In this document: positions 9,488 to 11,639 of the stretch, in pieces
Position numbering within the stretch: position 1 is the stretch's first letter
Layout: the number at the start of each line of letters is the position of its first letter
Source: a virus
DNA length: 64,000 nt
Reading direction: 5' to 3' (one strand)
Virus record (IMG/VR): IMGVR_UViG_3300035703_000061
Span: 10,486-74,485 of that record
Made by a program: the position numbers and the translations under genes
Notes under the pieces: model-generated
What the model was told of the DNA's origin: nothing
Seen by the model: only the letters and a program-made list of their open reading frames with translations
Databases searched by the model: none

Positions 9488-9499
9488 TGCTATATTGAC

Positions 9500-9962
9500 A
9501 AAGTTCCCGCTCTGCGTTAGCATCGGGCAGACAGAGCTTAAGCCTCTGAAGCGATTAGCGCTTGTTAATCGCTTCACGCTTAAGCCATTACAGCGGTCGG
9601 CGATCACCGTCATGCGTTCTTCGGATCGCCCGAATGAAAACGAGGCAAATCCCAAAGGTTCGTCCTGTCGGGGGTCGGATGGTAACCGACAAAACCTCCC
9701 TCCATTGCTTTGTCAGTGGAGAGCAGCGCACGGACTGGAAATTTCTGGTCGCCGCGTTTGCGTGATTCGCCCCCAAGCTTAGCTCTCAGACGGAAACCAA
9801 TTTGTTGGCGCCAGCAAAATGGTTTCTAGAGATGATGCTCAAACAGGGGGCTCTTGGCCCTGAAGTGTTGGCACACGTTAGGCACCAGCAGCTTCGCTGC
9901 GTACGAATGGCCGAATGGCCATTCTGAGCCTAGAATTCCGTGGTTCGATTCCCGGCAGCGTC
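9500..9962 (+). ncRNA. candidate large structured ncRNA ending in a tRNA-like domain
   Basis: Extended -10 TGCTATATT at 9488; eight or more strong hairpins; closing helix AGCATC/GATGCT; loop-loop complementarity; T-loop GGTTCGATTCC at 9942. Confidence 0.65.
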
Positions 9963-10928: not shown

Positions 10929-11166
10929 GAAGGCGAGTAAGCATGATCACGAAGCAGACAAAGTGGCGCTCATCCGCACGTTCATCTTTGCATCGTATTT
11001 AATCACCAACATTGCCATCGTTGCTAACGCTTGGCGCCATTGGGAGAAGCAGCCATCTGCTTGCGAACAAGCATTAAAAAGGGGGAGCTTAAGCCCCCAA
11101 TGCCCTCGGTGGGATTTGAACCCACATGAAGAAAATTCTTCTACGGATTTTAAGTCCGTTGCATAA
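10882..11166 (+). CDS. small membrane protein (WRIWAKALGEKA type)
   Basis: One hydrophobic helix; 3' end runs antisense into the tRNA. Confidence 0.6.
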   Translation: MSRKNAWRIWAKALGEKASKHDHEADKVALIRTFIFASYLITNIAIVANAWRHWEKQPSACEQALKRGSLSPQCPRWDLNPHEENSSTDFKSVA

Positions 11167-11186
11167 ACCAGTTCTGCTACGAGGGC
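11101..11186 (-). tRNA. trnL: tRNA-Leu(UAA), no encoded CCA
   Basis: GCCCTCG/CGAGGGC acceptor stem, ACGGA-CTTAAAA-TCCGT anticodon arm, long variable arm, GTGGG-TTCAAAT-CCCAC T-arm, discriminator A. Confidence 0.95.
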
Positions 11187-11348
11187 TCATGAGCAAAAGG
11201 GGCGTCGAGCGGGGCTTCAATCCGCCTTGTACGACATTTCAAAACGGGTTGGCCCGTTTCCCCCTTTCCCCTGGTACAGAACAATGGCGCCTGAAACCAT
11301 TGTTCCTTATTGAACTAACGCTGGCCAGCGTGCTTCGCGAAAGCTTCA
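11187..11348 (-). ncRNA. candidate structured ncRNA/leader immediately upstream of tRNA-Leu
   Basis: -10-like GCTATGCT at 11351-11358; several stems; TTCAAT/ATTGAA pseudoknot complementarity. Confidence 0.6.
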
Positions 11349-11372
11349 AAAGCATAGCATGGCTTTCGCTAC

Positions 11373-11639
11373 TCAAACGTCATATTCTCTACAGGATTGG
11401 TCTTCGGGATGAGCACGGCAGTAGTCGTCAAAATTTTCTTCACCATCGTGCATCACCTGCTCTAGCAATGTGATTTGCTTTAGGCGCTTGACGTGGGCTT
11501 GGAGCTTTGGAAGGAGAGTGGGGATGTAGAGATGTTCGGCTGCGAGGAGTTGAAGGGCGGTTTGTCTATTGGAGCTGCCACATTCAAGCAATGACACAAG
11601 AAACTGCGCCTCTTGCATAGTTAATTCGCTGTTCTTCAT
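11373..11639 (-). CDS. protein with CP12-like C-terminal Cys pair
   Basis: Ends FDDYCRAHPEDQSCREYDV (C-x8-C-x2-YD). Confidence 0.7.
   Translation of the reverse strand: MKNSELTMQEAQFLVSLLECGSSNRQTALQLLAAEHLYIPTLLPKLQAHVKRLKQITLLEQVMHDGEENFDDYCRAHPEDQSCREYDV

Follow-up and report, generated by a model that had tools for sequence, protein, structure and literature searches.

In phage T4, RNAC and RNAD sit in the tRNA gene cluster and are matured from precursors that also contain tRNAs, and in the MALAT1/mascRNA pair cleavage at the 5' end of a tRNA-like fold makes the mature 3' end of the RNA that lies upstream. Phages and prophages also encode conserved and ornate non-coding RNAs, such as GOLLD, ROOL and the bacterial Y-RNA-like YrlA, which were detected through covariation, are often found beside tRNAs, whose functions were long unknown and which all have an entry in Rfam. 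The pRNA of phi29 (about 120-170 nt) has its own promoter and a core formed by a three-way junction, and its loops pair between copies, being complementary to each other and not self-complementary. T4 RNAC and RNAD (species 1 and 2) are small stable RNAs, classed as late, whose function is still described as unknown (PMC9697503). About 10,000 structured RNAs have been catalogued from IMG/VR (PMC10690425).

The locus described here belongs to a cyanophage and lies in a window of 64,000 nucleotides (the whole stretch of DNA that was analysed), which comes from an IMG/VR virus record of 74.5 kb that is rated as complete. A first-pass annotation, made from the sequence of the window, had proposed a structured non-coding RNA of about 160 nt behind a -10 element and directly upstream of a tRNA-Leu, and the comparative evidence confirms it. 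Among the systems mentioned above, T4 RNAC and RNAD provide the closest way of working, as phage small RNAs made together with tRNAs; however, there is no relation in sequence or structure, the host group is another one and, in our case, a host-type extended -10 drives the unit of RNA and tRNA. MALAT1/mascRNA shares the position of a structured RNA directly upstream of a tRNA fold, but it is eukaryotic and nuclear and has a triple-helix end, whereas here the tRNA is a decoding one, the cut is a putative one and some relatives carry no tRNA at all. Like GOLLD, ROOL and YrlA, the cyanophage RNA is conserved, shows covariation and lies next to a tRNA gene; unlike them, it has no Rfam match at the gathering cut-off or at E up to 10, it is far smaller than GOLLD and ROOL, and it has no tRNA-like module of the kind present in YrlA. 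With the phi29 pRNA it has in common its approximate size, a promoter of its own and a three-way junction. The RNA described here lies beside packaging genes and has self-complementary loop tips, but the large terminase is a classical one and not a motor of the phi29 type, and Rfam gives no match. The features of the locus are collected in Table 1.

Table 1. Features of the locus in window coordinates; the window coordinate of RNA position p is 11347 - p.
Feature	Window coordinates	Strand	RNA positions	Description and basis
Large terminase gene, 455 aa	11671-13038	(-)		Upstream of the 88-aa ORF
88-aa ORF	11373..11639	(-)		Upstream neighbour with CP12 C-terminal motif; Pfam CP12, E = 1.2e-4
Extended -10 promoter TGCTATGCT	11351..11359	(-)		TG at 11359-11358, hexamer 11356-11351
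Non-coding RNA, ~160 nt	11187..11346	(-)		Likely start to the base before tRNA +1; covariance models, covariation
H1 GCUUUCGCGAAGC	11332..11344	(-)	3-6 with 12-15	5'-terminal hairpin, CGCG at tip
H2 ACGCUGGCCAGCGU	11318..11331	(-)	16-20 with 25-29	Perfect palindrome, hairpin tip GGCC
H3	11278..11306	(-)	41-51 with 59-69	11-bp hairpin, loop UUCAGGC
Three-way junction domain	11191..11271	(-)		
P1	11271-11260 with 11202-11191	(-)	76-87 with 145-156	11 pairs and one G-G mismatch
P2	11242..11259	(-)	88-94 with 99-105	Hairpin AAACGGG-CCAA-CCCGUUU, conserved tip GGGCCNACCC
P3	11204..11235	(-)		GUCG/CGAC, internal loop, GGCGG/CCGCU, 9-nt loop AUUGAAGCC at 11221-11213
P3a			112-115 with 140-143	
P3b			121-125 with 135-139	Capped by AUUGAAGCC
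tRNA-Leu(UAA), 86 nt	11101..11186	(-)		Long variable arm; ARAGORN and Rfam tRNA, 65.5 bits
Intrinsic terminator	11076..11098	(-)		Hairpin 11098-11081 (G+C) and T run; terminator scan

Folded alone, the window sequence recovers the long hairpin and the three-way junction, and it does so no better than chance (z = -1.39; 16 of 200 shuffles fold as well), so that the case for the RNA rests on its relatives. In these, the intergenic element diverges faster (68-93% nucleotide identity) than the terminase (92-100% amino-acid identity), which is what makes covariation visible. Covariation among homologues, the check named in the first-pass annotation, is abundant in each of three alignments. When 28 close relatives are aligned with plain MAFFT, 95.1% of the cells pair and 14 pairs have changes in both partners, a result that none of 500 shuffles reaches. 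The same procedure on 40 more distant relatives gives 94.2% paired cells vs 39-54% with the partners slid, and 24 of 45 pairs, among them 8 of the 10 in P1, have changed in both partners. The third alignment comprises 92 distinct sequences fitted to the covariance model R2, and therefore leans towards the structure; in it, 97.8% of the cells pair (36-53% when slid), 27 of 41 pairs show compensatory changes and no measure is reached by any of 500 shuffles. These compensatory pairs are spread over H3 (11/11), P2 (6/7), the P1 core (4/5), P3b (4/5) and P3a (2/4), with P2 pairing in 99.7% of the cells and both P3 helices in 100%. The models R1 and R2 match the RNA over its full length with 180 bits, in a single copy, and detect no paralogue elsewhere in the window. 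That this is a real, selected family of structured RNAs is, in our judgement, close to certain. A different stretch of about 430 nt (9488-9914, plus strand), located between an nrdB-like ORF and the next plausible ORF and devoid of a convincing frame, is not a paralogue of the RNA, since neither R1 nor R2 matches there.

The elements that had been drawn by eye in the first reading, with every helix, are found in place on the minus strand: the -10-like GCTATGCT (11358-11351), the palindrome ACGCUGGCCAGCGU (11331-11318), the hairpin GGAACAAUGG.../...CCAUUGUUCU (11306-11278), and the junction closed by AAAGGGG/CCCCUUU, which holds GAAACGGG-CCAA-CCCGUUUU (11260-11241) and GUCG..GCGG-AUUGAAGCC-CCGC..CGAC (11235-11204). 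The pseudoknot that was also proposed has not withstood the comparison: both of its strands, UUCAAU (11314-11309) and the loop AUUGAA (11221-11216), are present in the window, but their pairing is not conserved, as UUCAAU varies without compensation and is missing altogether from the second subgroup, whereas the loop does not vary. Similarly, the GGCGCC noticed at a hairpin tip is there in the window, but it is not conserved and gives way to GGCACC, GGAGCC or a GGGG loop elsewhere.

Across the family, the degree of conservation differs widely from one element to another. H1 and H2 are invariant in the 92 distinct sequences, and covariation in them is never seen within the family. The P3 loop AUUGAAGCC is invariant save for three single-base variants, and so are the AAA in the joiner between P2 and P3 (J2/3) and GGGCCNACCC at the tip of P2. 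P1 keeps a length of 10-12 bp in every lineage despite unrelated sequences, and the loop of H3 is UCAGG-like in most lineages (that of Synechococcus phage S-CBS4 included), a GGGG tetraloop in subgroup 2 and of 5-6 nt in others. A kissing interaction of the H3 loop with the P3 loop (UUCA with UGAA) is possible in the window and was not adopted, given the GGGG loop of subgroup 2. The ACCA that follows H3 shows no conservation, and some lineages have it within an extension of P1. L005 (L005:5763-5803), L007, L016, L017 and L159 have 40 nt inserted behind H3. The insert folds into two further hairpins with perfectly complementary loops, UUGCAC and GUGCAA, which may kiss or belong to an alternative long helix.

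Does the RNA correspond to any described family? At the gathering cut-off, the tRNA alone passes when the whole window is searched against Rfam 15, and at E up to 10 (801 nt, as well as the RNA alone in three lineages) the matches on the RNA are scattered and inconsistent, all of them above E = 1. The RNA, which could not be assigned by eye in the first reading, is unmatched by the cyanophage motifs (manA and wcaG included) and equally by the Rfam models of 6S, SRP, tmRNA and RNase P RNA, Y RNA, pRNA, ribozymes and riboswitches. A resemblance to motifs of SRP RNA domain IV and to the 23S GTPase-associated region found no support in Rfam and was dropped. The RNA belongs, therefore, to no curated family and represents an undescribed one of S-CBS4-like cyanobacterial siphoviruses. 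It may nonetheless be among the unnamed candidates of the IMG/VR catalogue, which is alike in data source and kind of evidence and was compared by its main text, where no cyanophage tRNA-linked motif is described (PMC10690425).

With respect to its genomic setting, the minus strand reads from the stop codon of the 88-aa ORF (11373) through a variable spacer to the promoter, the RNA of about 160 nt, the tRNA-Leu(UAA) and the terminator, which closes the unit. The 88-aa ORF aligns with the C-terminal 24 residues only of the CP12 profile (Pfam, E = 1.2e-4). The promoter motif, TGYTATGMT, is near-invariant: of 67 distinct upstream sequences, 66 have its TG, and its hexamer T-A-T-G-M-T is almost invariant, while the sequence further upstream varies freely. 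A standard promoter scan finds no -35 match upstream of the RNA and, that element being absent, returns no hit, so the promoter call rests on conservation. Transcription would start 5-7 nt downstream of the hexamer, at the purines 11346-11344, and since these lie just before H1, this hairpin would be placed at the very 5' end. What is expected of a stand-alone small-RNA gene is found here, i.e., a conserved promoter and a covarying structure, followed in the window by a tRNA, at which RNase P may cut, and by a terminator. Regarding expression, several RNA-seq runs contain part of the stretch. In four of them, available as contigs, the cover is patchy. One of the four, a freshwater cDNA run, has a 164-nt contig without differences (11131-11294) that bridges the boundary between RNA and tRNA and could derive from a precursor or from contaminating DNA; another run covers the coding flanks too. 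The contigs show no transcript ends and DNA may be present in RNA libraries; the indication of expression that they give is weak.

In 65 of the fetched loci, a tRNA with a UAA anticodon starts 3-5 nt after P1 (4 nt in the window), and a closing helix that ends so near to the tRNA +1 makes a release of the RNA by RNase P, as suggested by the first-pass annotation, plausible. This release cannot be the whole story, because eight relatives (L007, L009, L016, L030, L036, L056, L064 and L067) keep the full RNA without the tRNA. In these eight loci, about 20 nt after the RNA there is another extended -10, followed by a Glutamine-II riboswitch and a small ORF, and no terminator follows the RNA, which may there be the front of a longer transcript. 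Release by RNase P would consequently be a reasonable assumption where the tRNA is present, but it is not the defining feature of the RNA. Also the identity of the tRNA differs by relative, being a long-arm tRNA-Leu, a short Leu-like tRNA or a tRNA-Thr. Since the form of the tRNA varies, or the tRNA is absent, while the RNA is kept, the RNA is the constant member and the tRNA the exchangeable one, and the eight relatives devoid of it imply that the RNA is more than a tRNA leader.

Some properties of these downstream elements deserve a separate comment. The short UAA tRNA has 74-78 nt and a variable loop of 5 nt (L002:5830-5904, L041:4102-4175), compared with the 82-91 nt of the long-arm tRNA-Leu (L049:5837-5926), and both forms have D stems of 3 bp; a tRNA with a Leu anticodon and no long arm is unusual. 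The Glutamine-II riboswitch (RF01704, 35-45 bits) has its own extended -10 (L007:5910-5964, L056:2304-2354 and, in S-CBS4, L196:5801-5857) and is followed by a small ORF, annotated with 39 aa in S-CBS4. In relatives and in S-CBS4 the riboswitch comes shortly after the RNA or its tRNA. Rfam finds no such riboswitch in the window.

To evaluate how widespread the RNA is, IMG/VR was searched by terminase, yielding 272 relatives, of which 80 loci were kept. The RNA is present in all 72 terminase relatives whose sequence extends 520 nt or more beyond the terminase gene (72/72), usually about 320 nt downstream of it. A 26-mer across H1 and H2 occurs in at least 119 IMG/VR contigs, once in each, and a gapped pattern of the 3' domain retrieves 68 metagenome contigs, 67 of them true and nearly all with the 5' block too. 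As exact motifs, the 26-mer and the gapped pattern have no match in 185,579 prokaryote species genomes (GTDB, one genome per species). The carriers are a group of freshwater and estuarine cyanobacterial viruses. The isolate nearest to them is Synechococcus phage S-CBS4, which infects Synechococcus sp. CB0101 and has a terminase 76% identical. When the 701-nt region was compared by blastn with 50,697 phage records, no match was obtained at E 1e-5; the S-CBS4 counterpart, being too diverged for blastn, was found by synteny.

That counterpart occupies a gap of 506 nt (HQ698895.1 4371-4876 = L196:5366-5871) that is blank in the returned feature table and that contains the end of an ORF, a structured RNA, a tRNA-Thr(UGU) and the Glutamine-II riboswitch. 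More precisely, a -10 box is followed by the hairpin GCAUUCGCGAUGC, a second hairpin, a hairpin with the loop GUUCAGG and two more hairpins, and then by a single-stranded GAUGAAGC, a different three-way junction, the tRNA-Thr and the riboswitch. In the S-CBS4 clade, GCAUUCGCGAUGC is equivalent to H1 with one compensatory change of U-A to A-U, and another lineage has GGUAUUCGCGAAUACC as H1. Compensatory changes affect 18 of the 45 predicted pairs among 13 S-CBS4 relatives, and R2 matches the same spot in a dozen of them with E = 0.008-0.9. The clade shares with the main family H1, the UCAGG loop and a GAAG motif, arranged in one and the same order. In more distant lineages, H1 is a perfect 16-nt palindrome, or there are two hairpins with the loop UAGCGCUG, and a hairpin with the loop AUUGAAG lies outside the junction. 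Three modules recur in order: 5' hairpins with self-complementary G+C tips, a UCAGG loop, and a UGAAG or GGAAG loop. The RNAs of the S-CBS4 clade and of these lineages are read as distant homologues, on the basis of synteny and motif order and not of a significant score.

The self-complementarity of the tips in the 5' module extends to every lineage (CGCG, GGCC, GCGC, GGCGCC, or AGCGCU twice), and a monomeric hairpin needs no such tip. Two single contigs have a different centre of H2, GCGC in one (L217:1191-1345 (-)) and GGCGCC in the other (L197:6662-6821 (-)), and both stay perfect palindromes; furthermore, an extra A in L217 turns H1 into a perfect 14-nt palindrome, while one extra T makes the H1 of the window an imperfect DNA palindrome. 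These tips fit pairing between copies of the RNA or a symmetric DNA site. Self-association of the RNA, in the form of kissing dimers or rings that would be a scaffold or a decoy for a protein of the phage or of its host (or, at its boldest, as a pRNA-like packaging helper), is a speculation to which we give little weight. There is a second possible switch, suggested by complementarity, since the 5' strand of H1, GCUUU, has two candidate partners of identical sequence, GAAGC, one in H1 itself and one in the P3 loop, and in the S-CBS4 clade RNAalifold prefers the 5' end paired with the distal GAUGAAGC. All the bases involved are invariant, and for this reason covariation cannot decide which partner GCUUU takes. 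Either the self-complementary tips or this double complementarity could, judging from the sequences, explain the invariance.

Based on all of the above, the best supported reading is that of a stable, stand-alone phage RNA family that acts in trans, has its own promoter and has its 3' end usually cut by RNase P, with a probability that we place at roughly 0.6. The host RNA polymerase would start at the conserved extended -10, a few bases before the 5'-terminal hairpin, and the transcript would fold into the two invariant hairpins with palindromic G+C tips, the variable hairpin and the three-way junction with its conserved loops and junction bases. In most genomes, a cut by RNase P at the 5' end of the tRNA would then free the RNA, leaving a defined 3' end adjoining the long closing helix. 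As a stable molecule, the RNA would act in trans and bind its partner, a protein or another RNA, through its invariant single-stranded parts (AUUGAAGCC, the tips CGCG and GGCC, and the junction AAA). Within the window, a perfect complement of the P3 loop occurs at the RNA gene itself only.

The second best explanation, which we regard as unlikely, is a cis-acting leader of the tRNA precursor or of the riboswitch mRNA that controls processing, stability or read-through and has no role once released. The RNA is always directly upstream of a tRNA or of a Glutamine-II riboswitch unit, on the same strand and with no terminator in between; the end of P1 lies at 3-5 nt from the tRNA +1, and a three-way junction with conserved junction bases resembles an aptamer; the covarying stems, the invariant AAA in J2/3 and the conserved P2 and P3 tips of the domain would suit a riboswitch, although they imply no ligand or known class. 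However, there is no expression platform, i.e., no alternative terminator/anti-terminator and no ribosome-binding site to mask, as P1 is followed by the tRNA within 3-5 nt or by a promoter within about 20 nt. Against a leader also speak the downstream element, which can be exchanged or lost next to an RNA that stays constant, and the composition of the unit in the window, limited to RNA, tRNA and terminator; moreover, to our knowledge, phage tRNAs normally need no leaders of 160 nt. A further alternative concerns the 30-bp block of H1 and H2, which might be mainly a DNA element, with RNA hairpins as a by-product: two palindromic sites for dimeric regulators just downstream of the start (operator or roadblock), or a packaging or replication signal beside the terminase gene, given that the block lies about 320 bp after that gene. 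Over more than 92 sequences, H1 and H2 are the only helices without covariation; their invariance fits a DNA site equally well, and the rare variants of H2 keep the very centre palindromic, which is needless for a monomeric hairpin. Nonetheless, the sister clade has a compensatory pair change in its first hairpin, and its second hairpin is no DNA palindrome and shows a G-U/G-C variation that is RNA-specific. Besides, H1 is imperfect as a DNA palindrome, the block does not coincide with the end of a contig or genome, and the rest of the element, plainly selected as RNA, would be left unaccounted for, all of which makes this a distinctly improbable explanation.

Two other readings fail direct tests. 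One of them takes the RNA for a tRNA mimic that engages tRNA-binding enzymes or defence nucleases, for example as a circularly permuted tRNA-Leu(CAG) in which the H3 loop UUCAGGC is read as U33-CAG-G37. The loop has indeed the format of an anticodon loop in the window, ACCA comes after H3, a tRNA gene is fused to the RNA, and the UUGAA of the P3 loop is complementary to a T-loop UUCAA such as that of the adjoining tRNA; but ARAGORN and the Rfam tRNA model find nothing in 11187-11346, even at E up to 10, the H3 loop ranges from 4 to 7 nt across lineages (GGGG in subgroup 2) and the ACCA is not conserved. The permuted tRNA-Leu(CAG) was rejected on these grounds, and mimicry in general appears very improbable. 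The other one is that the region is protein-coding, through a plus-strand ORF of 115 aa (11126-11473) or a minus-strand ORF of 45 aa, or that its fold is mere chance. Both ORFs are open in the window, and many relatives have some open frame in this G+C-rich stretch. Yet the tblastn matches of both ORFs switch frame inside single relatives, so the protein-level conservation of the plus-strand ORF that the first-pass annotation had named as a possible objection is not found, and amino-acid identity is lower than nucleotide identity. The RNA lengths in relatives span all three classes modulo 3, frameshifting single-base indels and the 40-nt insertion separate close relatives, and no single frame is both open and conserved among them. 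In addition, the 115-aa ORF runs antisense to the tRNA and the CP12-like gene and has no Pfam match, and we see practically no chance left for coding or for a chance fold.

The stand-alone RNA favoured here would be of interest for several reasons. Structured RNAs with such covariation and invariance nearly always act specifically, and there are few phage examples whose role is known; in this case, the family has more than 90 distinct sequences with clear helices and appears to be confined to a widespread group of picocyanobacterial viruses. The same viruses carry elements that hijack carbon and nitrogen metabolism, namely the CP12-like gene and the Glutamine-II riboswitch. In the S-CBS4 record, the RNA fills an unannotated gap of about 500 nt, and in metagenomes it serves as a marker for the phage group. 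Its counterpart in a cultured pair, S-CBS4 and Synechococcus sp. CB0101, makes the RNA directly testable. Finally, the fusion to interchangeable tRNAs and the palindromic tips are unusual, and they could point to a new way in which phages make and use stable RNAs.
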